Source: an uncultured Gammaproteobacteria bacterium
GTDB lineage: Bacteria; Patescibacteriota; Patescibacteriia; Patescibacteriales; UBA12465
Assembly (NCBI GenBank): GCA_964517555.1
Contig: CAZFEF010000001.1
Span: forward strand, 56,598 to 120,597
Direction of reading: 5' to 3'
Length of the DNA stretch: 64,000 nt
This document shows, one piece after another, positions 38,115 to 62,664 of the stretch; the stretch's first letter is position 1, and each line of letters starts with the position of its first letter. A model generated the notes under the pieces. That model ran no database searches and was not told the DNA's origin. It was given only the letters and a program-made list of their open reading frames with translations. Position numbers and translations under genes: made by a program.

Positions 38115-38747
38115 TTGAATCTTATTAATATGACAACCGCGCTACAAATAATTGCCTCTATCTTGCCAATAGCCGTTTGCATAACCTATTTAAGACAAGT
38201 GTCCAGAGGAGAATCAACACCCAATCCTAGTACCTGGGTTATTTGGTTTATAGTAACAGGCATTAATACAGTGACCTATTTCCAGGTTGTAAATAGTGAT
38301 TATTTCAAAACCTCAATTGTATTTACGGTTTTCCTCTCTATGGGCGCGACTATGGCCTATTCTTTTTTTAAAGGAAAATTTGCAAAGCTAGCGAAGCTTG
38401 ATATGTCCATACTAACTTTATCTATAATTATTGGAATATTTTGGTGGATAACCAAAAATGCTGATATTGCTAGCTTGCTATTACAAATAATAATTTTTAC
38501 CTCCTACCTACCAACAGCCGTTGGTCTAATAAAAAATCGTCTGAAAGAAAAACATTTACCTTGGACATTAATTGTAATAGCCTATATCCTCCAAACTATT
38601 TCATTGTTAATGAATTATGATGGCAATTTATATCAGTTATTTTTACCGACTATTAATGGCATTATTGGCAATGGATTAATTTTAACAATAATTTTATATA
38701 AAGAAGTAAAAACGGGCAAATGGATTCGAACCAATTTGACCCAATAA
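38115..38747 (+). CDS. hypothetical polytopic membrane protein (210 aa)
   Basis: Six hydrophobic helices. Its last about 9 codons fall inside direct repeat A. Confidence 0.5.
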   Translation: MNLINMTTALQIIASILPIAVCITYLRQVSRGESTPNPSTWVIWFIVTGINTVTYFQVVNSDYFKTSIVFTVFLSMGATMAYSFFKGKFAKLAKLDMSILTLSIIIGIFWWITKNADIASLLLQIIIFTSYLPTAVGLIKNRLKEKHLPWTLIVIAYILQTISLLMNYDGNLYQLFLPTINGIIGNGLILTIILYKEVKTGKWIRTNLTQ

Positions 38748-38797
38748 AAATGACCTACTCGCTAAAATAATAAAACCAAGGCCAAAATTTTCGAATC
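38722..38797. repeat. direct repeat A (~76 bp, ~80% identical to 62457-62532), candidate island boundary
   Basis: ggattcgaac[c/t]aattt[g/a]acccaataaaaatg… is shared with the region overlapping the 3' end of the serine recombinase gene. In copy A it encodes …WIRTNLTQ*. In copy B it would encode GIRTNLTQ*. Confidence 0.55.
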
Positions 38798-38807
38798 ATA
38801 TACCATA

Positions 38808-38849
38808 ACAAAAATGAGCCTTTCAGCTCATTTTTGTATATATGCTCGC
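38808..38849. repeat. copy 2 of the ~44-bp hairpin repeat / bidirectional terminator
   Basis: AAAAATGAGC-ctttca-GCTCATTTTTGTATATATGCTCGC. Sits between convergent genes (38115..38747 + and 38908..39834 -). Confidence 0.6.
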
Positions 38850-38907
38850 GCATAAGGATTATTTCCGAACTTTTAAATGCTTAAATATTAGGGATATTAG
38901 AAAATTA

Positions 38908-39834
38908 TTATCTATTAACTAAAAATTCCGTTAAAACAAAAATTATGTAAAAAACAAATAATAGGAAAGCCTCTTTTCGGCTTAATATTCGGTCTGACTT
39001 CATAAAATAAAATAAAAGAAAAATTGCTAGAAACATGAATAGCCCAGTAATATAGATAATGCGTAAATTAAAGGCAAAGGGACTAATTAGAGCCATTATA
39101 CCAACTACGATAGTGGCGTCAGCAACAACTGTTCCCAGAATATCACCTAGGGCCAAATTATCATGATGATGTTTCGCGGCTTTAATTGAAAAAAATAATT
39201 CCGGCAGAGTCGTCCCTAGACCGACCACCAACATGCCAATCAATATTGGGCTAACATTTAAACCCCGTGCAAAATCAACTCCATATTTTACGGTAAAATG
39301 AGAACCCAATAAAAGACCGGTCATACTAAATAATAGGAATACTAAATTTTTGATATTAAATTTTTCCCGATCAATCTTGGCAACATAAATATTCTTTTTT
39401 AAAACTAAGTAGTAAAACAATAACCCAACTAAAATTAATATTATTCCGTCCAATCTAGAATAATAGCCATTTAGACCAAGTATAATTGGAATAGCCATTG
39501 CTCCGATATGTAAAAATCTATTTTTAATAAGCTGACTTTCTATTCTTAATTTTCTGCCAGATAAAAATACTACCAAAGCAAAAACTAGGGTTAGATCGGC
39601 AATATTCGAACCAAATAATGTACCTAGCCCAAAAGAAGGAATTTTTTCAATAGCCGAAGTAATTGAAATAAATGTTTCTGGTAAAATAGAAATGACAGCC
39701 ACGACCGCAAAACCAATAATATATTTGGGTAAATTAAAACTTTCCGCTAAATGGATTGAATAGCGAATGGCAAAATTTGCACTTTTAATTACCACAAATA
39801 ATGAAATTAATAAAAAAATAAATGACAAAGCCAT
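38908..39834 (-). CDS. CaCA-family cation/Ca2+ exchanger (YrbG-like)
   Basis: Two alpha-repeat signatures (ISILPETFISI and GTTLPELFFSI) in a roughly 10-TM protein. Confidence 0.75.
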   Translation of the reverse strand: MALSFIFLLISLFVVIKSANFAIRYSIHLAESFNLPKYIIGFAVVAVISILPETFISITSAIEKIPSFGLGTLFGSNIADLTLVFALVVFLSGRKLRIESQLIKNRFLHIGAMAIPIILGLNGYYSRLDGIILILVGLLFYYLVLKKNIYVAKIDREKFNIKNLVFLLFSMTGLLLGSHFTVKYGVDFARGLNVSPILIGMLVVGLGTTLPELFFSIKAAKHHHDNLALGDILGTVVADATIVVGIMALISPFAFNLRIIYITGLFMFLAIFLLFYFMKSDRILSRKEAFLLFVFYIIFVLTEFLVNR

Positions 39835-40011
39835 ATTACTTAAAAAATATTAAATTATACAAAAATTATAGCATATTTTACACTTTAAAACCCCGTGTAG
39901 GAATAGAACCCATTTTCACAAGGCTTCTTGGAAGCTTTCATGGGTTTTAGCAGGTGTGTGGGTCAGGGCAAAATGAGACAAATGAGACACTATAAAAAGG
40001 GTTTTCAAGTC

Positions 40012-41268
40012 TCATTTATTACAATTAAGGCCAATAACGGAAATATATTGATCGTTTGAATATATCTTTTCAACACTTGACAAAATAGAAGAAAAATCAT
40101 CATAACTAATATTCTCATCATTATTGAAAATTACAAAGATTCCGTAGCCAGAATCCGTTCCTTGAATGTACTGAATCAACTTCTTCCTATAATTTGACCT
40201 ATTTTTAAATCCTGACAACTCGGTATTAGTAGTGAGCTTTAATTCAATTAATATTGAACCTACAAAGCCATAAGAAACTAAAAAATCGGTTCGCTTATTA
40301 TCCAATAATTGAGTTTCTCTTCTGATGCTAATTTCTTCTTTTCTGAGCCCACCTTTTAATAAGCAATTTTCGATCTGACTATTAATCGTTTTTTGTATAA
40401 GATCCTCCTGTTTTCTGCCTGCCTCAATAATAAATCTATACGCACCCTCACTTTCAACCCATTGCCTCAAATCAGTTTCGAATATTTTTTTTACAAATTC
40501 AAATAAATCTCTTTTTGTAGCTATATCTAAATACATCATACCCTTAAGCTGATTATACTTTTTTATACAATCGGCAATATTTTTTGGTTTACCCAAATAC
40601 TCAATATATTCTTGCTTTAAATTTTGGAATTTATACCTAAGCCAATTAACTCCTGGCTTCTTGGAATTATTAATAATAAATTTTTCCAAGTCTCTAAGAT
40701 AACTATACGTATTATGCTCCTTTAAATTTTTATAATACTGAATTACAATTTCCCAGAGATAACTCGAATACGAATAATAAGGCTTGCCCTTTGAATATAT
40801 AACTAAAGAGTCTTTTAATAAATCCAAAAATAATTTCTTGATATCGCATTTTAATACCCAGACCGTTCTTTGATTATTTTTGGAAACCTGATTGGCAAAT
40901 TCTGCTAAACGATAAACAGCCCGATGAGTACCTTTATCTAAGCGGCACGAATAGGAATCAGAGATAAATTGTTTATCAAAATATTGATAGATTTCCCGGT
41001 AAAGCAAATGGTGGAGCAATCTGTCTCGGACTGTCGCTTTATGAATATTTCTCGGTTTGGGATCGGAAATATTAAAGGCTTGGTAGTTGCTATGTTTGTA
41101 GGTCTTGTTTTTTAAATCATGGTGGAGGCTAATGATATTATCCATTAATCTGCCTTGAAACAGTATTACGTCATTACGTTTTCTTTTACCCGTCAAAAAC
41201 TCCTCCCAAGCTAGAAGTAAGTTGGCAGTGGTAATAATATCTTCGTATTTTTTAATAAATTTCTTCAT
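40012..41268 (-). CDS. DGR-type reverse transcriptase homolog, N-terminal RT motifs 1-3 only, fused to an unrelated ~230-aa C-terminal region
   Basis: LLLAWEEF…GKRKRNDVILFQ…PKPRNIHKATVRDRLLHHLLY…FISDSYSCRLDKGTHRAV…VLKCDIKKLF matches the DGR RT finger/palm motifs 1-3. No motif 4 (GxPxG) or YxDD catalytic box follows. Confidence 0.6.
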   Translation of the reverse strand: MKKFIKKYEDIITTANLLLAWEEFLTGKRKRNDVILFQGRLMDNIISLHHDLKNKTYKHSNYQAFNISDPKPRNIHKATVRDRLLHHLLYREIYQYFDKQFISDSYSCRLDKGTHRAVYRLAEFANQVSKNNQRTVWVLKCDIKKLFLDLLKDSLVIYSKGKPYYSYSSYLWEIVIQYYKNLKEHNTYSYLRDLEKFIINNSKKPGVNWLRYKFQNLKQEYIEYLGKPKNIADCIKKYNQLKGMMYLDIATKRDLFEFVKKIFETDLRQWVESEGAYRFIIEAGRKQEDLIQKTINSQIENCLLKGGLRKEEISIRRETQLLDNKRTDFLVSYGFVGSILIELKLTTNTELSGFKNRSNYRKKLIQYIQGTDSGYGIFVIFNNDENISYDDFSSILSSVEKIYSNDQYISVIGLNCNK

Positions 41269-41274
41269 AAAAAT

Positions 41275-41643
41275 ATGAGTACAATTCTTCGCCCACCGGT
41301 CGTGCTCGTTAAAGCTAAGGAGACCTACGCGATTTGGTTCAAAGTTTTGGCTGACTTTCCTAAAGCTTATCGCTATAACCTGGGTGGCAAGATTGAAAAC
41401 TCTTTTTTATCAATTTTAGAAAATATTTTTATCACTGCTTATCTTTCTGGAGAAAAGAAACAAGCGCAGCTATGCTTGGTAATTACCAAACTTGATGGTC
41501 TAAAATTTTTTCTGCAGCTGGCCTGGGAAAATAAATGCCTTTCTAATAATAAATATTCTTGTCTTTCTGAGCAGTTAGAAGAAATTGGTCGGATGCTGGG
41601 TGGTTGGAGAAAAGGTTTAGAAATGAAAACTCCCGCCAAATGA
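41275..41643 (+). CDS. avd: Avd-like four-helix-bundle protein (DGR accessory variability determinant / 23S-IVS protein family)
   Basis: About 120 aa. YAIWFKVLADFPKAYRYNLGGKIENSFLSILENI matches the four-helix-bundle (Avd) family. It sits between the template repeat and the RT gene but on the opposite strand. Confidence 0.6.
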   Translation: MSTILRPPVVLVKAKETYAIWFKVLADFPKAYRYNLGGKIENSFLSILENIFITAYLSGEKKQAQLCLVITKLDGLKFFLQLAWENKCLSNNKYSCLSEQLEEIGRMLGGWRKGLEMKTPAK

Positions 41644-41659
41644 ACGGGAGAATATCAAT

Positions 41660-41768
41660 AATTGCGGGAGAAAACCTGGTTGCCATCGTTCCACTCGTTA
41701 GGATTCTCAACCGAGTTCGCCTTGACGTTCCAGCCATCGTCATTCCAGTTCACGTTCACAGCACGGAG
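41660..41768 (-). repeat. DGR template repeat (TR), 109 bp
   Basis: Matches the variable repeat at 42127-42235 except for 18 positions that are all A on the minus strand in the TR, plus one synonymous C/T difference. In the target-gene frame the variable positions are AAC/AAT/GAC/GAG codons (LRAVNVNWNDDGWNVKANSVENPNEWNDGNQVFSRN). Confidence 0.85.
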
Positions 41769-42103
41769 GCATCGATTATGTACTGAAAACCGTCTAGATC
41801 ACCGTCCTTCGGCTTAATGCCCCGGGATTGTATATTATTCGGGACCTGAAAGTCCACCAGTTTTCAGTACCAATTATTGAAGTTTTTGAAGAAGTCTCTC
41901 CTACTCTCGCGCTAGGCTTGCCCGACGCGACTCCGAGGCTAAGAATTCTGAAATCATGGCGAAATAGCCGTAACCGTTTCGCGATTCTTGGTTTCATATC
42001 AATGTATCATAAATAAGCGGAAATAAAAAGACCCTCGGACTGTTTCAGTTTTCAAGAAGAAAAAAGAAAGAGTCAAAGGGTCATAGATTCAAAGGTACAA
42101 GGG

Positions 42104-42796
42104 TTAAACGGTCTTAGTGACCGAGGAATTGCGGGAGAAAACCTGGCTGCCACCGAACCACCCGAGAGGACTCCCAACCGAGAGCGCCTCGACGTACCAG
42201 CCACCGCCATCCCAGTCCACAGTCACAGCACGGAGTGTACCAGTGATGTCACGGATATAGAAGATATTGGCGTAACCGTTATTAAGCAGCTCGCTTTTTT
42301 CTCCGTTTGCCTGACGCTCCATCATGGCATACATTTCTGATAAAGTGGTTTCGGATTTTTCCTGGCCACCAAGTTCGGAAATGATAGGGCCATCAACCGA
42401 TCCCCGGTTTAGCTTGCGTCCGTAAACTGTACTGCCGGCAAAGGGTTCTTCGGTTTTCTCTGTAAACCAGGCTTTGAAATTATCACCTACATAGGAAATC
42501 TTGACCTTAGCCTTCTTGCCCGTGTCAACCACAAATTTATCTTTAGCGACAAATTTTTCGGTGGTGGCAGAGAGAGTAACAGTTGAAATCACTTCGCTCA
42601 AGATAGCAGGGGCTGGTGGAACATCAGTCTTAGAGCGGTTAGTGATTGCCTGAATAAACAGGTCAATTCCCTCTCCGGCGTTTTGAATGAGCCACTGGGC
42701 GTCATCATTTGATAATTTTTCGAATCTGTCCTGGAATTCTACCATTCTCCCAGCGATCATGTGCTTCTGTTTTGTTGTTGCCATTTTGGCCTCCAA
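42104..42796 (-). CDS. DGR target (variable) protein, 230 aa, C-terminal VR
   Basis: The VR lies in the last about 40 codons (…LRAVTVDWDGGGWYVEALSVGSPLGWFGGSQVFSRNSSVTKTV*). No signal peptide is evident. Confidence 0.7.
   Translation of the reverse strand: MEAKMATTKQKHMIAGRMVEFQDRFEKLSNDDAQWLIQNAGEGIDLFIQAITNRSKTDVPPAPAILSEVISTVTLSATTEKFVAKDKFVVDTGKKAKVKISYVGDNFKAWFTEKTEEPFAGSTVYGRKLNRGSVDGPIISELGGQEKSETTLSEMYAMMERQANGEKSELLNNGYANIFYIRDITGTLRAVTVDWDGGGWYVEALSVGSPLGWFGGSQVFSRNSSVTKTV
42127..42235 (-). repeat. DGR variable repeat (VR) at the 3' end of the target gene
   Basis: See the TR entry. The substitutions relative to the TR are adenine-specific. Confidence 0.85.
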
Positions 42797-42935
42797 TTTT
42801 TACAGGTTTTAAAAGAATTTTCTGCGCTTCACCCAGCAGAATTTGGGCATTATTCTTTATTAAATTAATGTATAATTATATCACGTAATTAGACTTATGT
42901 CAAGCCGAAATAAAAATAAACCGTGGGCAGAATAA

Positions 42936-43298
42936 TTACCTACAACGCCTCTTCTTCTTAATAAAATCAAGAGTCAAATTTATCTCTTCTATTATTCTTG
43001 GGTTTTCATTCACCCAACAATTTTTAAGACCAATTAGAATCCTCTCGGAAACTTCATAATATCTTCTAAAATTTCTAAGTTCAAAAACAATAGCTATTTG
43101 TCTGTCTAGTTTTTTGTCTTGTCTACCAGACTCAATATCAACTAAATCTTCTACTAACTTGTGGTATATTTGAAAATTCCTATTTTTACGATAATCTCCA
43201 AATTTTATAATCGACCAAGCTATAACAAAGATACTCACTAGTATGCCCAGAGCTCCTGTATAATCATTTAAAAATGCGAAAATTTTGATAAACCACAT
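42936..43298 (-). CDS. hypothetical membrane protein (120 aa)
   Basis: N-terminal TM helix. ORF only. Confidence 0.35.
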   Translation of the reverse strand: MWFIKIFAFLNDYTGALGILVSIFVIAWSIIKFGDYRKNRNFQIYHKLVEDLVDIESGRQDKKLDRQIAIVFELRNFRRYYEVSERILIGLKNCWVNENPRIIEEINLTLDFIKKKRRCR

Positions 43299-43548
43299 AG
43301 TTTTTTATAATTAAAGTCCACTAAGATCGCCCTGATTTTTATAAATATGAATTGCCCCAATACTAATCATCTTGACGATCTGAGACAAAATCGCCAGAAC
43401 AAGCGATCTTCAGGTATGTGGGTCATAAAAAGACGTTTTTCATCAACGCACGCCATAGTCACGATAATTGGAACTGAGATGAGGAAGAATAATGATGTAT
43501 TTGTAACAACAATTTAATACTACCCCAGTGTCGCTCACTATATATCTT

Positions 43549-43770
43549 TTATGCTTTATCTTCAGGAAATAACTCGTAATATCCTGTCGGATTGTTCTCT
43601 CGCAAAAACTTTTTGAAAGATTTCACCTCTTTTTCAGTAAGGGGCTTATTATTTTCAGGGTCATTATTATCCTCCCAGCCATAGTCTTTTACAATCTCTC
43701 GCTTACTCAACCTAGGATCATTCTTCCAGGACCTTAAAATGGAATTAGCTTTTTGAATTTCCACAAACAT
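43549..43770 (-). CDS. hypothetical protein (73 aa)
   Basis: ORF only. Confidence 0.3.
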   Translation of the reverse strand: MFVEIQKANSILRSWKNDPRLSKREIVKDYGWEDNNDPENNKPLTEKEVKSFKKFLRENNPTGYYELFPEDKA

Positions 43771-43899
43771 ATATTTTTGTTTATTAGTTTTAATTTACCG
43801 ACCCACCGCCGGGGTTGACCCCCTGCCACACACCACCGACGATCGCGTGGTAGCAGTTTCGTATGGGAGAAAATATTTTTCAATTTGACAGGAGAATTT

Positions 43900-44241
43900 T
43901 TAAAATTTTATTGGCTCTTTCTTTTTCCCTTTATTTTCTATAATGCTCCGCCAATCTTTTACCCCTTCTACAAACAATAATGATAAACTAATGAAAAGAA
44001 TCAAATAACCAAAATTGCCGGCAATACGATCCTCTTCGGGACCCAATAACATATTTAATCCAATCGGGATTAATACAAGGCCAAAAAAGCCGAACCAACC
44101 TCGACAACCAAGTATAAGTGGTAATAATGGCAATATTAAAATAATTTTAAAAATTTCTATTAAATCTTTTTTAAACTTCATATTTCGCGTAGGATTTATC
44201 TGGGTCGAGGAAACAAAAAAGGTCTCCCGACACAGCGACAA
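43900..44241 (-). CDS. hypothetical small membrane protein (113 aa)
   Basis: Two to three hydrophobic helices. Confidence 0.35.
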   Translation of the reverse strand: MSLCRETFFVSSTQINPTRNMKFKKDLIEIFKIILILPLLPLILGCRGWFGFFGLVLIPIGLNMLLGPEEDRIAGNFGYLILFISLSLLFVEGVKDWRSIIENKGKKKEPIKF

Positions 44242-44420
44242 ACCCTTTCGGATCTGTCTCGCCCTCTTTCGAGAGCAAACCTACGCGAATAAGTGCTGGT
44301 CAGAAGACCATCTTTATTCGCGTAGGATTTTTTTACCATACCTGTCGGTAACCGACAGGGTTAGGTATTGTTTTTTATATAATAACCTTTTTACATCATT
44401 TTGAAAAGGTAAAAGCTAAA

Positions 44421-45338
44421 TTATGTTTTATTAAATAATTTATCAGCAATATCTATAATCTCAATCTTTTTAGCAACTCCATTAATCCACCTTTCCGGTA
44501 TTCCGTCGATTCCATAATAAGCACCGGCTAATTGTCCGTATATTGCAGCTGTAGTATCAGCATCGTCTCCCAAGTTTACGGCTTTTAGCACGCCCTCTTC
44601 AAAAGTCTCCGAATTATAAAACGCCCACAAAGCGGCTTCAAGCGATTTAACCACATAGCCCGACCCCTGAATAAAAGGCGGCTGCTGATTTTTATACGAT
44701 CCGAGAGCTACGGTTTCTGTCTCTTTAACTAATTTATTTTCAATCCAAAAATCTTTTATAGGGCAAAAAAGTGGTTGCAACAACTCCTCTTTAGTCGCTC
44801 CGTTTAATGCTCCAATAATAAGCCCGGAGTAATATTTACAAGCATCAGCACATAATTGTGATTCGTGAGTTACTCTAGAACTTAATTCTGCATATTTAAT
44901 CGCTTCAAAAACATTGTCTCTAAAATACAGTGGGATTGGGGCTATGCGCATCAAGCTACCATTACCATCAGAATTTCTAGAAGAAGTAGTTACATAAGGA
45001 TTTTCTCCGTTGTAAGCTACTAGAGCCCTTAAAACTGTCTGGCCAACGCCGAATGATCTGCCAGTGCTAGAGCAATAACCGGTTTCAAGCCATTTTTTAT
45101 ATTTATCAGCTTGATCCTTGGGGTCAAAACCCATACTCTCAATTAAACTATTAGCGAGACACAAAGCCATCGCTGTATCATCAGACCAACACCCCGATGG
45201 GAGGCGATTAGAATCTTCAAAATCATTAACGGGTTTAAAACTTCCTATAGATTTGAATTCTACTGGGACTCCAAGAGCATCGCCTATTGCCAAGCCAATC
45301 AATGATCCGCGATATTTTTTCAACAATTCACTATTCAT
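44421..45338 (-). CDS. ADP-ribosylglycohydrolase family protein (DraG/ARH-like)
   Basis: N-terminal GSLIGLAIGDALGVPVEF and C-terminal LGDDADTTAAIYGQLAGAYYG are diagnostic of the ADP-ribosylglycohydrolase fold. Confidence 0.8.
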   Translation of the reverse strand: MNSELLKKYRGSLIGLAIGDALGVPVEFKSIGSFKPVNDFEDSNRLPSGCWSDDTAMALCLANSLIESMGFDPKDQADKYKKWLETGYCSSTGRSFGVGQTVLRALVAYNGENPYVTTSSRNSDGNGSLMRIAPIPLYFRDNVFEAIKYAELSSRVTHESQLCADACKYYSGLIIGALNGATKEELLQPLFCPIKDFWIENKLVKETETVALGSYKNQQPPFIQGSGYVVKSLEAALWAFYNSETFEEGVLKAVNLGDDADTTAAIYGQLAGAYYGIDGIPERWINGVAKKIEIIDIADKLFNKT

Positions 45339-45353
45339 TATTCGATAAATTAT

Positions 45354-47375: not shown

Positions 47376-47380
47376 AAATA

Positions 47381-53047: not shown

Positions 53048-53051
53048 AATT

Positions 53052-54311: not shown

Positions 54312-56347
54312 AATTTTTTAAGATTAGAAAGAATTTCTTCCTCTATTTTTTTAATATCTATCTCTATTTCATCGAATTTACGCGGTTCTCGGTATTCATA
54401 GAAAAATCTCGTGAAAGGAATTTCATAACCAATAACACCAACACCTTGGTCTTTTCCGTCACAAACACTTTCATCTACCCAAGCATCTGGTGCATAAGGT
54501 TTTACTTCTTTTTCAAAGTATTTGTTTATATCCATCCCCCACGGCACACGTTCATAATCCTTAAGCTCGTTATCGGCCTCTTGTTTTCCATTCTCATCCA
54601 AACAAATCTCGCCCTCTTCATCGCGCTCACCAATTTGCTGCCAAACAATTTTAGCAATTCTTTTAGTAGTTTTAAGATTTCTTTTTTTGAGTTCACTTTC
54701 TAATTTTTCTAAAAAATCAACCCGTGAAATAATTATTTCCCCTTGTATGCTTTCCAGTATTTCATAAATAGCGGCGCGAAGCTCCTGCCATAATTTATTT
54801 TCCTCATCGCCTTTTTCACCTTTTTTCTTACTCGGCACGTCATTTAAGAAATCCTTATGATTTTTCAACCGTTCTAAAGTTTTACTATTGATTTCAAATT
54901 TAAGACGAAGCGGGCGCTGAATCGTAATCTGCCGATAAGCAAAATCGGTTGTGTTAAATATTTTTACCTGTTCAGTATTTTTATTTTCAATATAATGCTC
55001 TAAAATTTCCTGCGCATTTTCATCAGTTATTTCATAGCGCTTCTCTCCAAGATTTTTTCGCAGCTGTGTGCGAATATTACGTGCATCAACTAGCATCACT
55101 TTGTTTTTTCGATCAACAGGTTTTTGTGTTGAAAATATCCAAATATACGTAGAGATTCCGGTATTAAAAAATAATTTTTCAGGAAGAGCAACAATCGCAT
55201 CTAATAAATCATTTTCTAAAATCCAGCGACGTATTTCACTCTCACCACTGCCGGCATCACCGGTAAAGAGTGGTGAACCATTAAAAATAACAGCTGCTTC
55301 ACCTCCACCTTCTTCTTTTGTTTTTAATTTAGAAATAATATGTTGCATAAACAAAAACTGCGCATCGGAAATCCTAGGTAACCCAGCGCCAAATCTGCCA
55401 GAGAATCCTCGTTCTGCCTCACTCGCAACTGCAGTTTTATCCTTTTCCCAACTCACCCCAAAAGGAGGATTGGAAAGAACGTAGTCAAACCTCTGCCCTT
55501 GATGTTGATCGTTAGACAGCGTGCTTGCCTTGGTGTGCTCCTTGTCACCGCCCTTAATTGAGTCAATATCCTCGCCCTTAAGCAGCATATCTGCCTTACA
55601 GACCGCGTAAGTAGTTGAATTAAGCTCTTGGCCATAAAGAAAAATCTTAGCATCCTTGTTAAAGTGAGTCTGAATATAGTCCTTACTTACGGTGAGCATT
55701 CCACCAGTGCCGCAAGCTGGATCATAAATCTCTTTAATCGCGCCCGGTTTAGCTAACTCCTTCTCTTTACCAGTAAAAAGCAAGGATGTCATAAGACGCA
55801 CCACGTCGCGTGGAGTATAGTGCTCTCCGGCTGTTTCATTAGATTGTTCAGCAAAGCGACGAATAAGATCTTCAAAGGCAAGGCCGATAATATGGTTTTC
55901 TACTTGGTCAGGATGAAGATTTATTTTATTAAACTCTTTTAGCGCAAGATAAAGCAATTCTGACTCGTGCAATTTATCTAAAATCCTATCAAATTCAAAT
56001 TTAGCAAAAATTTCTTTAACATTATCGGAAAAACCATCGATATATTTGCGTAAATTAGGCGCGGCTTGCGTCGGCGCTTCTAAAAGCTTTTTGAAAGTAT
56101 AGGGTGAAGTATTATAAAAATTATATCCGGTTGTGCGATAAAGAATGTTGAGATTTTTAACGCGACCATCGAGCTCATTAAACCGCTCCAGGGTTTTTTG
56201 TTTTGTTGGTTCAAGGGCGTCGTCCAATCTCTTAAGGACAGTCAGGGGCAAAATAACATCCTGATAATCTTGAGCCTTAAAAGTGCCTTGCAGATGGTTC
56301 GCAATATTCCAAATCGTATTAGATATTTCTCGATAATTTGTTAACAT
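54308..56347 (-). CDS. hsdM: type I restriction-modification N6-adenine DNA methyltransferase subunit
   Basis: Motif I (IYDPACGTGGML) and motif IV (LSNPPFGVSW). Confidence 0.9.
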   Translation of the reverse strand: MLTNYREISNTIWNIANHLQGTFKAQDYQDVILPLTVLKRLDDALEPTKQKTLERFNELDGRVKNLNILYRTTGYNFYNTSPYTFKKLLEAPTQAAPNLRKYIDGFSDNVKEIFAKFEFDRILDKLHESELLYLALKEFNKINLHPDQVENHIIGLAFEDLIRRFAEQSNETAGEHYTPRDVVRLMTSLLFTGKEKELAKPGAIKEIYDPACGTGGMLTVSKDYIQTHFNKDAKIFLYGQELNSTTYAVCKADMLLKGEDIDSIKGGDKEHTKASTLSNDQHQGQRFDYVLSNPPFGVSWEKDKTAVASEAERGFSGRFGAGLPRISDAQFLFMQHIISKLKTKEEGGGEAAVIFNGSPLFTGDAGSGESEIRRWILENDLLDAIVALPEKLFFNTGISTYIWIFSTQKPVDRKNKVMLVDARNIRTQLRKNLGEKRYEITDENAQEILEHYIENKNTEQVKIFNTTDFAYRQITIQRPLRLKFEINSKTLERLKNHKDFLNDVPSKKKGEKGDEENKLWQELRAAIYEILESIQGEIIISRVDFLEKLESELKKRNLKTTKRIAKIVWQQIGERDEEGEICLDENGKQEADNELKDYERVPWGMDINKYFEKEVKPYAPDAWVDESVCDGKDQGVGVIGYEIPFTRFFYEYREPRKFDEIEIDIKKIEEEILSNLKKL

Positions 56348-56515
56348 TTTTTTATTTCATTAAATAATTATAAATAATAGTCGAATAATCCATAAAACTA
56401 CTAAAAAACTAAAAAATAAGGTAGTTTTTCTACATAAATGCTTGATTTTTTAGCTATTCCAGGCTAACATCAGTATATAATATTAGTATTAAAATTACAA
56501 TTAATATCCAATTAT

Positions 56516-57250
56516 ATGGCGAATTTTGATCTTCAAGAGAAGATCCGGTCAGTGATTGACCTTATTAGACTAAAATTAGCTAACCTAGACGAGAATGATC
56601 TTAATAAAGACGAGATTTTCTTAGGTTTTGCCGCCGGAGATTTAACTGATTGTGGTCTTAGCCAATCTAATTTATATAAAGTCTTAAATTACTTAAAGAA
56701 AGCTGAAATTATAAAAAATATTGAAGTTAACGACACGGAAAAAATTGAAGCCCCGAACAATGATAATCCAGAACACTGGCGCCAATTATATAAAAAACTG
56801 TACCCCGCCATATATTATATAAAAATAGACAAGAATTTTAATGAGCTCTCCAAAATATATCTTAATAATCCAAAAAAATTGCTGTTAAACAATCCGGAAT
56901 TAAAAACTAGTATAAACAGTCTAACAATTGTTGCACCCAAACCCATCTCCCAATATTGTAGTTTTAAATTAATTATAAATTCAAATTATAATAAACCCAT
57001 AAAAGTTAGCCGAAAAACAAAATCTTGGAATTTTCTTTTTAACGTGGCAGAAAAAAAGCCGATGGAATCTGAGGCAAATAAAAGCTATTCCGATTATATA
57101 AACGGTAGCAGAAACTTAATAGTGCAAAAAGGATATCAACAAACCAAAATATTGGCGACTGAGAGTCGGTATGTTGTGCCGAATATTGAGATAAAAATAA
57201 TAACTGAAAAAGCTTACAAGATTCATCTTAATAAACAAGGCAAAGCTTAA
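56516..57250 (+). CDS. hypothetical protein (244 aa)
   Basis: ORF only. First gene of a + strand module that ends with the serine recombinase. Confidence 0.4.
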   Translation: MANFDLQEKIRSVIDLIRLKLANLDENDLNKDEIFLGFAAGDLTDCGLSQSNLYKVLNYLKKAEIIKNIEVNDTEKIEAPNNDNPEHWRQLYKKLYPAIYYIKIDKNFNELSKIYLNNPKKLLLNNPELKTSINSLTIVAPKPISQYCSFKLIINSNYNKPIKVSRKTKSWNFLFNVAEKKPMESEANKSYSDYINGSRNLIVQKGYQQTKILATESRYVVPNIEIKIITEKAYKIHLNKQGKA

Positions 57251-57416
57251 AAAAACTTAAAAAGTTGATAAGTATAATTAACCGCTAAATTAGCGGTTTT
57301 TTTATATGGAATTAATAAATTTTCAGCATTATTACAACTAGCATTCCTTGCAATAATAAAATGAGAAATTTCTTAAGGCCAATGCATTGGTAATCTAAAA
57401 AATTAAATTAAAATTT

Positions 57417-57692
57417 ATGATTATCAACAAATTCGAAACAAACCGAGACGAAAATCGGACAGAGCTTTTTATTACTCAAGATTTAAATTTAGCCACCTGT
57501 CTAATATCACTAGACTACGAACTGCGAAGTATAGACAAAACTAACCCGCAAAAAAATCAATTTTTATTTCAACGCTACCCAGGCCTTGAAATAGCTATTG
57601 AACATTATTGGAACGACAACTTAAAAATTAATGCCCGAACCCTTTTTGATAACCAGCGATTATTAAAAAACCGGATCTATGCGGCTGAATAA
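57417..57692 (+). CDS. hypothetical protein (91 aa)
   Basis: ORF only. Confidence 0.35.
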   Translation: MIINKFETNRDENRTELFITQDLNLATCLISLDYELRSIDKTNPQKNQFLFQRYPGLEIAIEHYWNDNLKINARTLFDNQRLLKNRIYAAE

Positions 57693-57851
57693 TATGATCA
57701 GCGAAGAGGAATTAATTAAGTTTCAAGAGTTGTATAAAAACCGCTTTAATAAAGAAATATCTCGCAACAAGGCTTTAGAGTCTGGACTAAAACTTATTAG
57801 TTTGCTCCAAGCAATTCTAAAACCAATTAATAAAAATAAAAATTAAATCAT

Positions 57852-60035
57852 ATGAACCAAGACTTAATTAGTATTAAAGATTACTTAAATCAAAAAGGTA
57901 TAAAATATACTGAGGCCAATGGTGAATTAATTACCGACTGTGTTTTCTGTGAAAAACCAAAGCACTTATACTTTAATGTTTCTACTAGCCAATACGACTG
58001 CAAGGTCTGTGGCCAACAAGGCAATATCATAACTTTAGCCAAACACTTTGGTGATGAAATAAAGAGTCTAAAGTCAGGATATCAAAACAAACCTGTAGTA
58101 AAAAAAGGGAGGGTTAAAATTGATTCTAGCTCAGTTGAAAGATATCACAATCAATTACCAGACCGAATCAGGAATTATCTTAACCAGAGAGGCATAACAG
58201 ATGATCTTATAAGCCAATACAAGCTCGGCTATGGCAAGTTTTATGGTAAACCCTGGATAATTATACCCATAAAAGATGAGTATGGAGAATATTCCTTCCT
58301 AAAATTAAGGAAAGACCCCTCGGATGAAACCAGTCCTGACAAATATAAATTCTATCCGATCGGAAGCGAGGCAGAACTATTTAATCAAGAAGCGCTCGAT
58401 AGTAATGATATGATTGTTATCTGCGAAGGAGAATTTGATTGTTTAATACTACAATCCTATGGCATCCCCGCAATTACTTCCACGGCCGGAGCTAACACTT
58501 TTAAAAAAGAATGGTTTGAAATTTTAAAACCGATCAAAAAAATATATATATGTTTTGACAGGGACGACGCCGGCGAAAGGGGGTCTCTAAAGTTAGTTGG
58601 GATGTTAGAAGAAAATATGATCGGTGAAGATGTCTATAAAATTGATTTGCCGAACAGAATGCTTGATGGCAAAGATATAACAGATTATTTTACTAAACAC
58701 GATGGTAATGTTGATGAATTTTTTAATTCAGCTGAGAGAGTTGGGGGCAGAGTTAAAATCGATACTTCAAAATTTTCTCCACTATCATCAACCGATCTCA
58801 CAGAGATTCTTGGCCTGACAATTAAAAAGGACGAGGAGAATAAATTAGTTACCTTCCTGTGCGAACTATGTGCCTATACTGAAAACTCTCAGTTTAATAT
58901 TAGCTTCAATGCCCCATCTTCAACTGGTAAAAGTTATATCCCGACTGAAATAGCGAGGCTATTCCCAGAAATTGACGTGAAGGAGATTGGCTACTGCTCC
59001 CCTACTGCATTTTTTCACGATGTTGGGGTCATAAATAAAGATAGGGGCGGATATGAAGTGGATTTATCGAGAAAAATAATGATATTTTTAGACCAACCAC
59101 ATATGATGCTTTTAGAAAGACTGAGGCCCCTTTTATCACACGATAAAAAAGAAATGACAATAAAAATAACCGACAAAGCTCAAAAGGGTGGACTCAAAAC
59201 TAAGACTATTTTTCTTAAAGGTTTCCCGGCAGTTATCTTTTGCAGCGCTGGATTAGTAATTGACGAACAAGAAGGAACTAGATTTCTACTTCTTTCTCCT
59301 GAGACCAATCAAGAAAAAATTCACGGCGGTATTTCAGAAAAAATTAATAAAGAGTGTGATAATCAAAAATACAAGGAGTGGCTAGAGGGAAACCCCGGGC
59401 GAATACTTTTACGTGAAAGAATACTGGCAATCAGGAATGAAATGGTTGACGATATTAAAATAAGTTCACCAGAAAGCATTAAAAAAATATTCTTGGACAA
59501 TAAAACACTCCTTAAGCCACGACATCAGCGAGATATCGGTCGATTAATATCAATAATAAAGGCCTTTGCCCTTCTTAATCTATGGTTTAGGGACCGAGAA
59601 GGCAACAATATAATAGCCAACGAAGATGATATAAAAGAGGCTATGAAAATATGGGGAAAAATTTCTGAAAGCCAAGAATATAATTTACCACCATACGTCT
59701 ATGATCTCTACAAAGAGGTAATTCTTCCTGCCTATCGAAATAAAAACACGGACGAACACGGGTTCCCAAATGGATTCGAGGAAGGGTTAACTAAACAAGA
59801 TATATTTAATTGGCACTTTAAGGTCTACGGTCGAAACCTGGAAGATTTTAAATTAAGGATGCACATAATTCCTATGCTGGAAACGGCCGGCCTGATATCT
59901 CAAGAACCAGATCAAAAAGATAAAAGAAGAATACTGACTTTTCCCACTGCCCCGCTCATCGCAGAGAGCCTGGATAATATAGTGAATGATACTGGGGAGG
60001 AAAATAACAACTCTCAAGTCCAAAAAACTAGCTAA
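57852..60035 (+). CDS. phage/plasmid-type DNA primase (Cys4 zinc ribbon + TOPRIM) fused to a P-loop NTPase domain
   Basis: CVFCEKPKH…CKVCGQ zinc ribbon. TOPRIM (ICEGEFD; CFDRDDAGERG). C-terminal Walker A (APSSTGKSY) and Walker B (MIFLDQ). Confidence 0.75.
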   Translation: MNQDLISIKDYLNQKGIKYTEANGELITDCVFCEKPKHLYFNVSTSQYDCKVCGQQGNIITLAKHFGDEIKSLKSGYQNKPVVKKGRVKIDSSSVERYHNQLPDRIRNYLNQRGITDDLISQYKLGYGKFYGKPWIIIPIKDEYGEYSFLKLRKDPSDETSPDKYKFYPIGSEAELFNQEALDSNDMIVICEGEFDCLILQSYGIPAITSTAGANTFKKEWFEILKPIKKIYICFDRDDAGERGSLKLVGMLEENMIGEDVYKIDLPNRMLDGKDITDYFTKHDGNVDEFFNSAERVGGRVKIDTSKFSPLSSTDLTEILGLTIKKDEENKLVTFLCELCAYTENSQFNISFNAPSSTGKSYIPTEIARLFPEIDVKEIGYCSPTAFFHDVGVINKDRGGYEVDLSRKIMIFLDQPHMMLLERLRPLLSHDKKEMTIKITDKAQKGGLKTKTIFLKGFPAVIFCSAGLVIDEQEGTRFLLLSPETNQEKIHGGISEKINKECDNQKYKEWLEGNPGRILLRERILAIRNEMVDDIKISSPESIKKIFLDNKTLLKPRHQRDIGRLISIIKAFALLNLWFRDREGNNIIANEDDIKEAMKIWGKISESQEYNLPPYVYDLYKEVILPAYRNKNTDEHGFPNGFEEGLTKQDIFNWHFKVYGRNLEDFKLRMHIIPMLETAGLISQEPDQKDKRRILTFPTAPLIAESLDNIVNDTGEENNNSQVQKTS

Positions 60036-60064
60036 TTATTTCGGTAGTTTTAAAGCAAAAATAT

Positions 60065-60658
60065 ATGATTAAAATGATTAAAACGATCAAAGAAGACTGT
60101 AAAGATTTCAGCGTCTACGACCTTAAACGTTGGGGACTTATACAATATGGATATTGCCGCGGGTCAATTCTGTGGCCCAAAGGCCAAAACCTCGAAGGAG
60201 ACAAGGTAAACTATGTCCTTGATCTAAAAAACCAATATTTAAAATTAAGCTATAAAGTCAAAAAAGAATTTTCAAGGGAATGGAAAATGATTGAATATAC
60301 GATTCCCCTAATCAAGACTGCTTGTCACTATGGCGATGAAAGATGGTGGTTCGCGTGCCCATTAAGTAGAAATGGCCAATATCGCACGCACAGAGTGGCT
60401 AAGTTATATTTACCTCCCAATTCTGACTATTTTGCTTGTCGCCATTGTCTAAATTTATCCTACAAAAGCAGAAACGAGAATTATAAAGGCAGATTTGGAC
60501 ATCTAAGAAGGTTTTTTGACCTTGAGAGGCGGGTTGAGAAACTTCGAAAAAGGGCAAAGATAAAATTCAGGGCCGGAAAGCCAACCCAAAAATACCGCAA
60601 ACTTCTAAATAAAAGCCGTTTACTGCGATATTCGGAGATTATTAACGGTGAACCCTGA
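60065..60658 (+). CDS. hypothetical Cys-rich protein (197 aa)
   Basis: CxxG…WWFACP…CRHC pattern suggests a zinc-binding protein. No assignment. Confidence 0.35.
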   Translation: MIKMIKTIKEDCKDFSVYDLKRWGLIQYGYCRGSILWPKGQNLEGDKVNYVLDLKNQYLKLSYKVKKEFSREWKMIEYTIPLIKTACHYGDERWWFACPLSRNGQYRTHRVAKLYLPPNSDYFACRHCLNLSYKSRNENYKGRFGHLRRFFDLERRVEKLRKRAKIKFRAGKPTQKYRKLLNKSRLLRYSEIINGEP

Positions 60659-60713
60659 AGAGAAAACTGAGCCAAAACACTTGAAAAAACTAGCAGATCT
60701 GATAATATATTAG

Positions 60714-60840
60714 TGCTTACCCAACTAAATAGTTAATACTCGAATTTTTTTAATATTTGCTCCTGAAAGGGATGGTTCTACCAGCAAATATAGCTTTCGA
60801 GTTATATTTAGTTGGGTAAGCTAGGACCATCCCTTTTAGT
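60714..60840. repeat. interleaved inverted repeats (A-B-A'-B') immediately upstream of the serine recombinase gene; candidate recombination site
   Basis: A is gcttacccaactaaatagttaatactcgaa (60714-60743). A' is ttcgagttatatttagttgggtaagc (60796-60821). B is ctgaaagggatggttctaccagc (60762-60784). B' is gctaggaccatcccttttag (60821-60840). Confidence 0.5.
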
Positions 60841-60858
60841 TACTAAAAATTAAATTAT

Positions 60859-62469
60859 ATGAACAAAAATGAACAAAAAATTGAGTATTTTATTTACGCT
60901 CGCAAGTCTTCGGAGAGCGAAGAGCGGCAAGTCCAATCGATAGATGACCAAGTAAACAGACTTAAACAACTGGCCAGTAGCTCTGGTCTAAAAATTAAAA
61001 AGATTTATACGGAGTCAAAAACAGCCAAGCAACCCGGCATTCGTCCTATCTTTGAAGAGATGATGAAAAAAATTGAAGCCGGAGAGGCTAATGGTATTTT
61101 ATGTTGGCAAATAAATCGGCTTTCTCGTAATCCAATCGATAGCGCCAGAATTCAATGGCTCTTGCAACAAGGAAAAATTAAAAATATTCAAACGTTTGAT
61201 AGAACTTATTTGCCAGACGACAACACTCTTTTATACAGCGTTGAAACCGGTATGGCCAATCAATTTATTTTAGATCTGAGCAAAAATGTTAAGAGAGGCG
61301 TTCAGAGTAAATTAGAAAAAGGTTGGCGACCAGGAAATGCTCCCGCTGGTTATAAAAATGAACTTTATGATCACACGATTGAGACTGACGCAGAGAGATT
61401 TAATCTGATCAAAAAAGCCTGGAGCTTACTACTGACCAATGAATATACGGTGCCGAAAATATTGGATAAATTAAATAATGATTGGGGTTTTAGAAGTTTG
61501 AAAAAAAGAAAAAGCGGTAACAAACCATTATCAACCAGTGGTTTATATAGAGTGTTCACTAATGTTTTTTATGCTGGAATTATTGAACATAAAGGCCAGC
61601 AATACCCCGGTAAACATAAGCCAATGATAACACTTGAGGAGTATGATAAAGCCCAGATACTACTAGGTCGAGCCGGAAAGCCTCGTTCTACAAAACATCA
61701 ATTCGCCTATACTGGATTAATAAAATGCGGTCACTGTGATTGCTTGATCACCGCAGAAACTAAAAACAAGATTATTAAAAGCACTAATGAAACCAGAAAA
61801 TATACTTATTACCGCTGCACGAGAAAAAAAACCGACATCAAGTGCAAACAACAACCAATAAGTCTGGGAGAACTAGAGCCGCAAATTATTAAGGAGTTAA
61901 ATGAGCTAACGATTCTCCCAGAGTTTAGAGACTGGGCGCTAAATAATATTAAAGCATCTAATGATGCTGAAATTGAGGATCGAACAAAAATTTATGAAAT
62001 GCAGCATCGCAGTATTGCTGAAAAACAAACCCAGTTAGATAACTTAACCAAAATGCGTTATCGCGGATTAATTAATGACGATGAATTTCTGAAAGAAAAA
62101 TCTGAATTACAAAATGAGATTATAAGATTAAGAGATAATCTTCGAGGCACAGAACAAAGAACTGACACCTGGATCGAGCTAACAGAAAGAGCCTTTAAGT
62201 TTGCTGCGACCGCCAAAGAAGCCTTCGAAAATGGTAGTCTGGAAACAAAAAGAGAAATAGTTAGAACTCTGGGGTCAAAGTTCACTTTATTGGATAAAAA
62301 GCTTTATTTTGAGCCAGAATGCTGGATTCAGAAGATGAAAGATGCTGCCAAAGAAATAAACACTGATTCCACAAGGTTAGAACTACAGAAAATCCTTGCA
62401 AACAAAGGAAAAACAGGCGATTTCTCGCCTGCTCTTCCACGATTGCACAGGCGAAGGGATTCGAACTAA
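60859..62469 (+). CDS. large serine recombinase (phage-integrase type)
   Basis: N-terminal resolvase domain (YARKSSESEERQVQSIDDQ with the catalytic Ser region), a recombinase domain, and a C-terminal zinc ribbon (CGHCDC…YYRC) and coiled coil. Confidence 0.85.
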   Translation: MNKNEQKIEYFIYARKSSESEERQVQSIDDQVNRLKQLASSSGLKIKKIYTESKTAKQPGIRPIFEEMMKKIEAGEANGILCWQINRLSRNPIDSARIQWLLQQGKIKNIQTFDRTYLPDDNTLLYSVETGMANQFILDLSKNVKRGVQSKLEKGWRPGNAPAGYKNELYDHTIETDAERFNLIKKAWSLLLTNEYTVPKILDKLNNDWGFRSLKKRKSGNKPLSTSGLYRVFTNVFYAGIIEHKGQQYPGKHKPMITLEEYDKAQILLGRAGKPRSTKHQFAYTGLIKCGHCDCLITAETKNKIIKSTNETRKYTYYRCTRKKTDIKCKQQPISLGELEPQIIKELNELTILPEFRDWALNNIKASNDAEIEDRTKIYEMQHRSIAEKQTQLDNLTKMRYRGLINDDEFLKEKSELQNEIIRLRDNLRGTEQRTDTWIELTERAFKFAATAKEAFENGSLETKREIVRTLGSKFTLLDKKLYFEPECWIQKMKDAAKEINTDSTRLELQKILANKGKTGDFSPALPRLHRRRDSN

Positions 62470-62532
62470 TTTAACCCAATAAAAATGGACTGTTTGCTAA
62501 AAATATAAAATTATAGCCAAAATTTCCGAACC
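62457..62532. repeat. direct repeat B (partner of 38722-38797)
   Basis: About 80% identity over about 76 bp. It contains a degenerate copy of the 3' end of the 38115..38747 membrane-protein gene. Confidence 0.55.
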
Positions 62533-62593
62533 GGTAATTTTTGGCTCATATTACAGAAAAGCAGACACTTTCGCGACTGCTTATCCTGATTTG

Positions 62594-62664
62594 CTCGGGG
62601 ACAAGGATTCGAACCTCGATTAACAGGGCCAGAACCTGTTGTCCTGCCATTAGACGATCCCCGA
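62594..62664 (-). tRNA. tRNA-Gln (anticodon CUG)
   Basis: Reverse complement: TCGGGGA-TC-GTCT-AATGGCA-GGAC-A-ACAGG-TTCTGGC-CCTGT-TAAT-CGAGG-TTCGAAT-CCTTG-TCCCCGA-G. This gives a 7-bp acceptor stem, D arm, anticodon arm with U33-CUG, TΨC loop TTCGAAT and G73 discriminator. CCA is not encoded. Confidence 0.8.

Follow-up and report, generated by a model that had tools for sequence, protein, structure and literature searches.

A tRNA-Gln-anchored island in a candidate phyla radiation genome, probably assembled by successive elements with a large serine recombinase

The segment at about 37.9 to 62.6 kb of the window (the whole 64,000-nt stretch analyzed here, from the 159,696-bp contig CAZFEF010000001.1 of assembly GCA_964517555.1) is an accessory region that ends at a tRNA-Gln(CTG) gene and contains a large serine recombinase (LSR). 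We read it, with a probability of about 0.6, as an additive, tRNA-Gln-anchored island in a genome of the candidate phyla radiation (CPR), that arose as non-viral elements of a single family repeatedly integrated and decayed, with a nested or tandem history in which an intact LSR-primase element (~39.9-62.5 kb) lies beside older scars. The original prediction for this DNA, an integrative element bracketed by diverged direct repeats, holds for the repeats, the recombinase and the variability between strains, and fails for the target and the left boundary; its description of accessory, horizontally acquired and compositionally distinct DNA with a complete LSR at the tRNA-proximal end is supported. 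Named homologs of the recombinase, of LysRS and of a membrane protein at the far end of the island carry almost exclusively CPR labels (Wolfebacteria, Parcubacteria, Magasanikbacteria, Falkowbacteria), with a few bins labeled otherwise.

The recombinase gene (60859..62469, plus strand) encodes 536 aa and, judged by domain architecture and a length above 400 aa, its product is a bona fide LSR. Three Pfam domains score above their gathering thresholds, namely PF00239 (61.1 bits against a cut-off of 23.3, residues 11-155), PF07508 (28.1 bits) and PF13408 (35.3 bits), and the protein matches the integrase family phrog_95. Its PDB matches are the catalytic domain of TP901-1 and, over residues 216-419, the C-terminal domain of the A118 integrase, with E values of 1e-5 to 1e-7. 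Residues Y13, R15, K16 and S17 are invariant in 32 family members.

Homologs of the LSR numbered 2,933 at E <= 1e-3, the best of them 55-64% identical. Scanning one genome per GTDB species gave 363 loci, and 80 of these (L011-L090) were analyzed with 10-kb flanks. ARAGORN calls an opposite-strand tRNA in 65 of the 80 with a 3' terminus that falls within the recombinase alignment, at exactly 23 nt from where that alignment ends; two more have it at -21 (67/80 thus overlap an intact tRNA) and one at -59. The overlap spans the 23 nt from T-loop to CCA, and the T-loop GTTCGAATC, read antisense, encodes the conserved ...DSN end of the protein. Among the remaining 12 loci, five have no evaluable downstream sequence and six keep a TGGC...GGATTCGAAC block followed by an unusual tRNA-like body. 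The same rule is obeyed even by a 36%-identical relative, and it was also seen in locus L091. Ten target tRNA identities occur (His, Trp, Gln, Asn, Ser, Ile, Met, Lys, Asp and Glu), and the nearest recombinase neighbor has the same tRNA type in 51 of 68 cases, for a chance expectation of 0.19. A side observation concerns L033, L039, L041 and L051 (the first ~110 nt past the recombinase end), where a TGGCTCC...GGATTCGAAC block is followed by a common non-canonical body, ...CCTTACA...GGACTATATCATCA..., that ARAGORN does not call; these bodies could be intron-containing or otherwise unusual CPR tRNAs.

Beyond the recombinase (80/80), the genes that recur in these loci encode a DUF5659 protein (51/80), a homolog of orf197 (37/80) and a primase (33/80), always upstream of the recombinase and on its strand; the cargo of the window does not recur, apart from weak hsdM matches. 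Both ends of such an element can be seen in L049, a complete 886-kb chromosome, where an element of 8.3 kb, its recombinase next to the tRNA, is flanked by a perfect 23-nt direct repeat consisting of the 3' end of tRNA-Asn (T-loop to CCA), and the sequence just inside the far end is still weakly tRNA-like. When the 10 kb upstream of the recombinase in the 80 loci were scanned for a displaced 3' fragment of the tRNA, allowing <=4 mismatches over 23 nt, only L049 yielded one, and blastn comparison of the junction sequences with the family loci was uninformative. IMG/VR contains a single, distant relative of the recombinase, which abuts a tRNA-His, and essentially no others, so these elements are not recognized as viruses; a prophage reading was rejected on this account. 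Pfam and PHROGs likewise showed no capsid, terminase or tail family, as a prophage or satellite would have, and we identified no packaging genes or excisionase in the element.

At the scale of the family (public data contain at least 2,900 of the recombinases, and the GTDB species representatives 363 loci), it is quite possible, if somewhat short of probable, that these loci represent a CPR-wide and so far undescribed family of primase-bearing integrative elements. Its LSR would take the T-arm-to-3' end of a tRNA as the chromosomal attachment site, attB, and its own last eight codons, antisense to the tRNA, as the core of the element site, attP; clades would track tRNA identity, and targets may change by capture of a neighboring tRNA, leaving fossils, such as a pseudo-tRNA-Trp beside tRNA-Gln, that serve as landing pads. 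A limited full-text literature search found no description of CPR serine-recombinase elements at tRNAs, which is no proof of novelty.

The window LSR falls among tRNA-Trp-associated recombinases, and its top five neighbors are all of that type. Its 3' end, together with the repeat unit at 62443..62530 (minus strand; U_b), aligns position for position with the recombinase and tRNA-Trp of the five closest relatives. In the alignment of the last 60 nt of the gene and the sequence downstream, the relatives read ...attacacg TGGCAGGCGAGGTAGGAATCGAAC and then the rest of tRNA-Trp, and the window reads ...cttccacga TTGCACAGGCGAAGGGATTCGAAC and then TAATTTAACCC..., with TTGCACAGGCGAAGGGATTCGAAC of U_b opposite TGGCAGGCGAGGTAGGAATCGAAC of the tRNA genes. 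The 3' block of U_b lies antisense to the last eight LSR codons, and this decayed tRNA-Trp-like unit stands in the canonical register with the recombinase 3' end. An integrase therefore lies at the island edge by a tRNA, its stop 123 nt from tRNA-Gln and overlapping a tRNA-Trp-like fossil in the family register.

U_b slightly extends the right copy of a direct repeat. A repeat search of the window returned a gapless 84-nt direct repeat, 38712-38795 against 62447-62530, at 80% identity; its local alignment score of 68 compares with 14.8 ± 2.4 for shuffled sequence (0/500 shuffles reach 68; z ~22). The 76-bp repeat first proposed (38722-38797 and 62457-62532, ~80%) agrees with these coordinates to within ~10 nt, and the placement of its right copy over the recombinase stop (62467-62469), 60 bp from tRNA-Gln, is confirmed with a measured gap of 62 nt to the tRNA at 62593-62664. 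The right copy starts exactly at the position that the acceptor end of the target tRNA occupies in the relatives. The left unit (U_a, 38708..38795, minus strand) has the same decayed tRNA-Trp-like body, no recombinase attached and a T-run on the 3' side of its own strand; its 3' block, ACGGGCAAATGGATTCGAAC, is similar to the 3' end of the L013 tRNA-Trp, with an identical acceptor part. These units, ~77-88 nt long, received no ARAGORN call and no Rfam tRNA or credible family at permissive thresholds (none even at E = 10 for the right copy), and we rejected the idea that they are tRNA genes; they are tRNA-derived only. The register of the window recombinase and the position of tRNA-Trp in its relatives together identify the right copy as a tRNA-derived fossil. 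On this sequence evidence the repeat is best described as two copies of a tRNA-derived attachment-site (att) fossil, U, and not as the 3' end of the membrane-protein gene.

The membrane-protein gene had been the original choice of target: an element was proposed to have inserted into its 3' end and to have brought a replacement 3' end, an arrangement like that of SCCmec at rlmH. The gene (38130..38747, plus strand, GC 0.31) encodes a multi-pass protein of 205 aa with no Pfam family and probably starts at ATG 38130, given an exact-protein match with the ATG start and none with the TTG start. Its last 12 codons (stop 38745-38747) are indeed covered by the left repeat copy and run into U_a, the right copy still reads ...IRTNLTQ followed by a stop in a frame other than that of the recombinase, and DNA homology of the gene to its closest relative ends exactly at 38712, the start of the repeat. 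However, among 31 protein matches (including the query, all from Patescibacteria and all in unrelated gene contexts) the C-terminal tail is absent from every homolog outside the species, and is carried only by the query and by the 99%-identical protein of a sister strain (P0021), so the tail reads as a fusion into a scar and not as a replacement 3' end. The repeat is thus no conserved 3' end of a target gene, as it would be in an SCCmec-like arrangement. The repeat unit also exists without the gene in two other contigs (L092 and L097), it begins exactly in the tRNA register of the recombinase family, and the transporter gene next to the left unit is kept in the sister strain. Insertion into this gene is hardly credible on these grounds; the gene is probably leftover cargo of an older element. 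An attempt to use its homologs as synteny anchors failed, their contexts being unrelated. Members of this protein family (38130-38747, P0002-P0031) are ~200 aa long and share invariant P128, T129, G132, E140 and W145 and the motif N176-G177...G180-N181-G182.

A second possibility, that U is a functional RNA or regulatory element of the host that accompanies tRNA-Gln and was duplicated independently of an incidental or inactive recombinase, in an island of otherwise ordinary acquired DNA, draws on the conservation of U itself. The unit is 76-88% conserved between genomes, each copy examined (38708-38795; 62443-62530; L092 2620-2715; L097 13150-13245) holds two TTCGAA-type motifs ~60 nt apart that can pair, so that a long hairpin can be drawn, and the three recombinase-free copies end in the same T-run. 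RNAalifold of the four copies gave a hairpin of 22 pairs, but with a compensatory change in only 1/22 and a covariation term of -0.25 kcal/mol; moreover U has no Rfam match, its fixed 23-nt register with the recombinase ORF is the att position of the family, and copies of it lie between unrelated cargo-type genes. We regard a host RNA as very unlikely, and return to U as an att fossil.

The similarity around the repeat extends well beyond U. When gaps are allowed, the repeat grows to a colinear unit of ~160 nt (38712-38870 against 62447-62614) that comprises, in order, U (the pseudo-tRNA), a spacer, a GAAAG-loop terminator hairpin and a 3' fragment of tRNA-Gln. On the right the last two parts are the hairpin that follows tRNA-Gln (62560..62581, minus strand, AGCAGACACTTTCGCGACTGCT on the plus strand) and the intact tRNA-Gln(CTG) gene itself (62593..62664, minus strand, called by ARAGORN and Rfam), the anchor of the island. 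On the left they form D3b (38808..38870, minus strand), a colinear hairpin at 38808-38837 and a tRNA-Gln 3' relic at 38843-38870, TGCTCGCGCATAAGGATTATTTCCGAAC against TGCTCGGGGACAAGGATTCGAAC in the intact gene. The relic scores 30 against tRNA-Gln, with 14 ± 2.9 for shuffled sequence (0/300 shuffles reach 30), and is decayed, with four substitutions and a 5-nt insertion relative to the live gene. Its similarity to the intact tRNA ends at the T-loop, the signature also seen in the L049 repeat; to the right of CGAAC the two units score 31 against 30.9 ± 4.1 for shuffled sequence, and a duplication of the whole tRNA-Gln was therefore rejected.

A third and weaker copy, with hairpin and fragment and lacking U, lies upstream of the membrane gene at 38005-38070. 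It belongs to a second direct repeat, D3 (38004-38070 against 38807-38873, 75% identity), that brackets the membrane gene. This copy (D3a, 38005..38070, minus strand, also part of an inverted repeat, I2) consists of a hairpin at 38005-38034, of the type that follows tRNA-Gln in the related species represented by L097, and a weak tRNA-3'-fragment-like relic at ~38040-38070 whose similarity to tRNA-Gln is not significant when taken alone. Situated between a Trp-repressor-like gene and the membrane gene, D3a is the most distal scar of the island. Read in the direction of the tRNA, the layout is thus tRNA-Gln; hairpin, U_b, recombinase, cargo and a Na/Ca exchanger gene; tRNA-Gln relic, hairpin, U_a and the membrane gene; and a further relic and hairpin before the backbone. 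Such an arrangement is what one would expect if elements kept integrating at a single tRNA and the earlier ones decayed, as in the tycheposon islands discussed below.

Comparison with a sister strain shows which part of this layout varies between strains. Logan contig L010, from a different sample (SRR21848549), matches 38075-39875 at 96.9% identity and passes straight into sequence matching 62503-62564 (92%). At the joint, ATTATAACATA is followed immediately by AAATTTCCGAACC, so that 39875 is joined directly to 62520. The segment that varies between strains is therefore 39876..62519 (22,644 bp, with a junction ambiguity of 1 nt), which contains the intact LSR element with its core and cargo; its right end falls within U_b, which spans the junction 62519/62520. 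An independent contig from the same sample (L001) covers the left junction. An empty site at ~38797/62533 had been anticipated: most of the island (22.6 kb) is indeed absent from the sister strain, but the joint is elsewhere, and the left boundary of the variable DNA is at 39875/39876, because the exchanger, U_a and the relics are kept. The Na/Ca exchanger family gene (38908..39834, minus strand, PF01699, GC 0.31), present on L010, is accordingly island DNA that lies outside the strain-variable segment. A separate observation concerns the same strain: ahead of the membrane gene, in comparison with 38075-38104, it has a 17-nt tandem duplication (GCAGAAACATTATAAAA x2), and its contigs L003 and L010 both end there.

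The left junction (39862..39875, plus strand, AAAATTATAGCATA) forms an imperfect 14-nt direct repeat with 62507-62519 (AAAATTATAGCCA). Just to its left is a 17-nt sequence that matches U_b at 16/17 positions (AAAAATATTAAATTATA; z = 3.7); a full third repeat copy at this flank was considered and rejected, the match being limited to these 17 nt. Eleven nucleotides inside the junction lies a tRNA-Trp-like 3' fragment (PsiTrp-L, 39887..39912, minus strand, AAAACCCCGTGTAGGAATAGAACCCAT), which agrees at 15/16 positions with the T-arm of the tRNA-Trp genes that the closest recombinases target (nine tRNA-Trp matches). From its sequence PsiTrp-L is a candidate for the attL core of the intact element. 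The region thus offers several candidate tRNA-derived pairs for that element, with U_a and U_b, the tRNA-Gln relic and tRNA-Gln, and PsiTrp-L.

Several points weigh against the favored reading. The sister junction is not the canonical empty site of a T-loop crossover, as most of U_b is missing from it, and so are the 11 nt to the left of PsiTrp-L; to explain it, one must assume either one 22.6-kb deletion between the imperfect 14-nt repeats or an excision and then a small slippage deletion. L010 is a short, low-coverage contig that ends 28 nt before tRNA-Gln. No circular form was observed, and no contig with a circle junction was found. PsiTrp-L is statistically weak by itself (E ~0.2 per query window-wide), its meaning coming from position and orientation, and it matches the U_b 3' block at 13/28 positions, where U_a matches it at 21/28. 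Both element ends are visible in one relative only, L049.

The same observations allow another reading, in which the region is a single composite element of ~23.7 kb (~38731-62466 or 38871-62614), bounded by the long units and inserted at the T-loop of U or of tRNA-Gln; it would be the island as first proposed with a tRNA-type target, the exchanger would be its far-end cargo and the sister strain would have suffered an internal 22.6-kb deletion of mobility and defense genes. The ~160-nt colinearity of the units, with similarity that ends at the tRNA-Gln T-loop as in L049, agrees with this, as do the closer match of the U_a and U_b blocks, the position of the sister junction within imperfect 14-nt direct repeats (compatible with deletion), the similar recombinase-less remnant between tRNA-Gln-hairpin-U and a distal relic in a related species, and the exchanger and membrane genes, which are as AT-rich as the rest of the island. 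However, the distal relic is decayed and shares its insertion with another species, which marks an old event, yet the mobility genes are intact and the segment varies between strains; a gap of 123 nt would separate the recombinase from its target tRNA, whereas the two overlap in 67/80 relatives; and the tRNA-Trp-like fragment at 39887-39912 would be left unexplained. The sister junction does not discriminate between the nested and composite models: it fits the canonical empty site of neither, since most of U_b is missing too. We consider a single composite element rather unlikely. A nested or tandem history is favored because the relic frame is old while the 22.6-kb unit has all its mobility genes intact and varies between strains.

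The age of the frame is indicated by a related species (L097-L099; LysRS 89% identical), in which tRNA-Gln is likewise followed by the hairpin and U, the latter 76-78% identical to both window units. After U come EamA and LysE transporter genes and no recombinase, and ~2.7 kb farther on L097 carries a relic, AAAGTTCGGAAATAATCCTTATACGGGAGCA and a further 50 nt, that matches window 38842-38922 at 84% identity and has the same 5-nt insertion relative to live tRNA-Gln. This derived insertion, shared with the related species, implies that the distal relic frame is older than the intact element or was carried by such elements. In L097 two ABC-transporter genes lie between LysRS and tRNA-Gln (10001-13110) and an H+-PPase gene lies on the other side of LysRS, in comparison with window 62593-64000, so that the island coincides with a synteny breakpoint. 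A JGI metagenome contig that lacks the membrane gene (L092) contains two copies of U between genes for a P-loop ATPase, a methyltransferase-like protein and a cupin-like protein; one of them has the same hairpin as U_a (82% over 142 nt).

The DNA directly 3' of tRNA-Gln is hypervariable between strains and species. Within the species, all four contigs with an identical LysRS stop at or just past tRNA-Gln (among them the contig ends of L093-L095), and L096 carries a third haplotype after the tRNA (2535-2560, TCGTTGAACAAGCAGGCACGCAAGT). L100 comes from another strain of the L097 species; as far as the tRNA-Gln 3' end the two agree at 99.99% identity, and from there (13113 onward) they are unrelated. 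Within the window's species, L093, from a different sample, shows the hairpin after tRNA-Gln with two changes that improve its pairing (AGCAGGCGCGAAAGCGTCTGCT against AGCAGTCGCGAAAGTGTCTGCT on the tRNA strand).

We propose the following mechanism. Each element has a conserved core of a DUF5659 protein, a Toprim primase, a ~200-aa protein and the LSR, together with variable cargo. As the recombinase ORF ends antisense within the 3' end of its target tRNA, the att core would lie in the last codons of the enzyme itself. Recombination between an attP that spans these codons and an attB in the tRNA T-arm, whose stem could give the dyad symmetry used by serine integrases, would place the crossover within the T-arm; integration would then rebuild the tRNA from element sequence, and the displaced tRNA 3' fragment would end up on the opposite side of the element. 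The excised form may be replicated with priming by the Toprim primase. Earlier elements may have made the frame at tRNA-Gln, with the membrane and exchanger genes, U_a and the tRNA-Gln relic as scars or leftover cargo of these older units, and the target may have changed from tRNA-Trp to the neighborhood of tRNA-Gln by capture or decay. The present Trp-clade element would be the latest arrival in this order of events, seated with its recombinase in canonical register on U_b just downstream of the tRNA-Gln terminator; we infer that U is, or was, its landing site.

tRNA genes are the classic targets of tyrosine integrases. In the tRNA-proximal islands of Prochlorococcus, newer elements by the tRNA push older ones outward, partial tRNAs and degenerate elements accumulate, and 910 of 937 of the elements concerned, the tycheposons, use tyrosine recombinases, a minority having large serine recombinases (Hackl et al., bioRxiv 10.1101/2020.12.28.424599). 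The region described here resembles them in its integration at a tRNA site, its integrase with a primase/replication module, its variable cargo, a strain heterogeneity greatest beside the tRNA, and partial tRNAs and degenerate older elements that lie outward of the newer one. It differs in the use of an LSR, in the CPR host, in the ORF that overlaps the tRNA 3' end in fixed register, in the lack of identified packaging genes or excisionase and in the seat of the present copy at a decayed tRNA. The likeness is one of functional architecture, of working like tycheposons and not of membership, as tycheposons are defined on Prochlorococcus and marine elements. The region is accordingly a tRNA-proximal island with a serine integrase that works in the tycheposon manner; it is not a prophage, and its target is not SCCmec-like.

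The integrase itself resembles those of A118/LI, TP901-1, Bxb1 and phiC31 in combining a resolvase domain, a recombinase domain and a zinc ribbon, and in acting as a single enzyme encoded at the element edge by the att site. Known phage-type serine integrases use short att sites in protein-coding genes or intergenic DNA, with little identity between attP and attB. Here, in contrast, ten kinds of tRNA serve as sites, and their 23-nt block of identity is at the same time coding sequence for the C-terminus of the enzyme, and similarity to solved enzymes is low (E 1e-5 to 1e-7). With SCCmec and its Ccr recombinases at rlmH the family shares an LSR-driven island at a gene 3' end, direct repeats and restoration of that 3' end; unlike SCCmec, the restored gene is a tRNA or its fossil, and the recombinase lies at the very end of the island, overlapping the site. 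Archaeal integrases of the SSV type are tyrosine recombinases that target tRNAs; their attP lies within the integrase ORF, and the int gene is split on integration. The att core within integrase coding sequence and the tRNA target are held in common with them, but here only the last eight codons overlap, and since the tRNA carries the identical block the ORF is not disrupted.

A single island of this kind, with acquired defense genes and an integrase beside a tRNA, is ordinary; what stands out is the recombinase family, whose family-level rule is worth following. It is a very large and tightly conserved (55-64% identity) family of serine integrases at tRNAs across the CPR, with a fixed 23-nt overlap that serves as a simple rule for placing the boundaries of islands and mobile elements in genomes whose mobile DNA has been little mapped, and that explains assembly breaks at these tRNAs. 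Related serine integrases whose specificity co-varies with tRNA identity are useful for studying, and possibly engineering, att-site recognition; if the CPR-wide reading is correct, they would form a natural series with predictable, differing 40-50-bp targets. The locus also shows how an island ages: it loses recombinases and keeps cargo transporters, and its pseudo-tRNA scars endure and become fused into neighboring ORFs.

The island combines presence/absence polymorphism with deviant composition. Its GC content is 0.357 over 39876-62516 and 0.308 over 37918-39875, compared with 0.410 in the left backbone and 0.429 in the right flank, and the tetranucleotide distance to the backbone approximately doubles from ~36 kb onward, so that composition deviates from ~36-38 to 62.5 kb. 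The AT-richness predicted at the outset, with the GC and tetranucleotide comparison suggested for it, is thus borne out, and so is the predicted gene content between the repeats (exchanger, parts of a diversity-generating retroelement (DGR), ADP-ribosylglycohydrolase, nuclease, GmrSD-like protein, type I restriction-modification (R-M) system, primase and recombinase). Upstream of the recombinase, the core module (56516..60658, plus strand; annotated with Pfam and PHROGs) contains orf244 (56516-57250, plus strand), which was not found in the related loci, and the genes for the DUF5659 protein (57417-57692, plus strand), the Toprim DNA primase (57852-60035, plus strand) and orf197 (60065-60658, plus strand), the last three being those detected by tblastn in the related loci at the frequencies given above.

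The DGR (40012..42796, minus strand) is decayed and comprises a reverse transcriptase (RT), bAvd, a template repeat (TR), a variable repeat (VR) and a target gene. The RT gene, orf418 (40012-41268, minus strand), is truncated and fused to an unrelated C-terminus: only residues 1-147 match a reverse transcriptase (phrog_1423, E = 3e-42), ~270 unrelated residues follow, no Pfam RVT match was obtained, and the YxDD motif is absent from every frame of 39800-43000. The bAvd gene (41275-41643, 58 bits) is on the plus strand, opposite to TR, VR and RT. The TR (41660-41768) differs from the VR (42127-42235), which lies at the 3' end of the target gene (42104-42796), by 19 mismatches, 18 of them at T on the plus strand of the TR (A on the target strand). 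The system looks like a relic, with TR/VR and Avd present and an intact RT with YxDD missing.

Toward the recombinase, the defense cargo (45873..56347, minus strand) comprises a Cas4-like PD-(D/E)XK and RNase H-like nuclease (45873-47375), a GmrSD-like protein (47381-49084, PADLOC HEC-05), an ORF of unknown kind (49304-50035) and the hsdR (50084-53047), hsdS (53052-54311) and hsdM (54308-56347) genes of the type I R-M system, all on the minus strand. Between the DGR and this block are small ORFs, an ADP-ribosylglycohydrolase gene (44421-45338, PF03747) and, between the two, a LOOT RNA motif (44237..44367, minus strand; Rfam RF03000, 82.2 bits against a gathering score of 46.4). The motif overlaps the mechanically called ORFs at 43900-44241 and 44015-44404, which may therefore not be genes.

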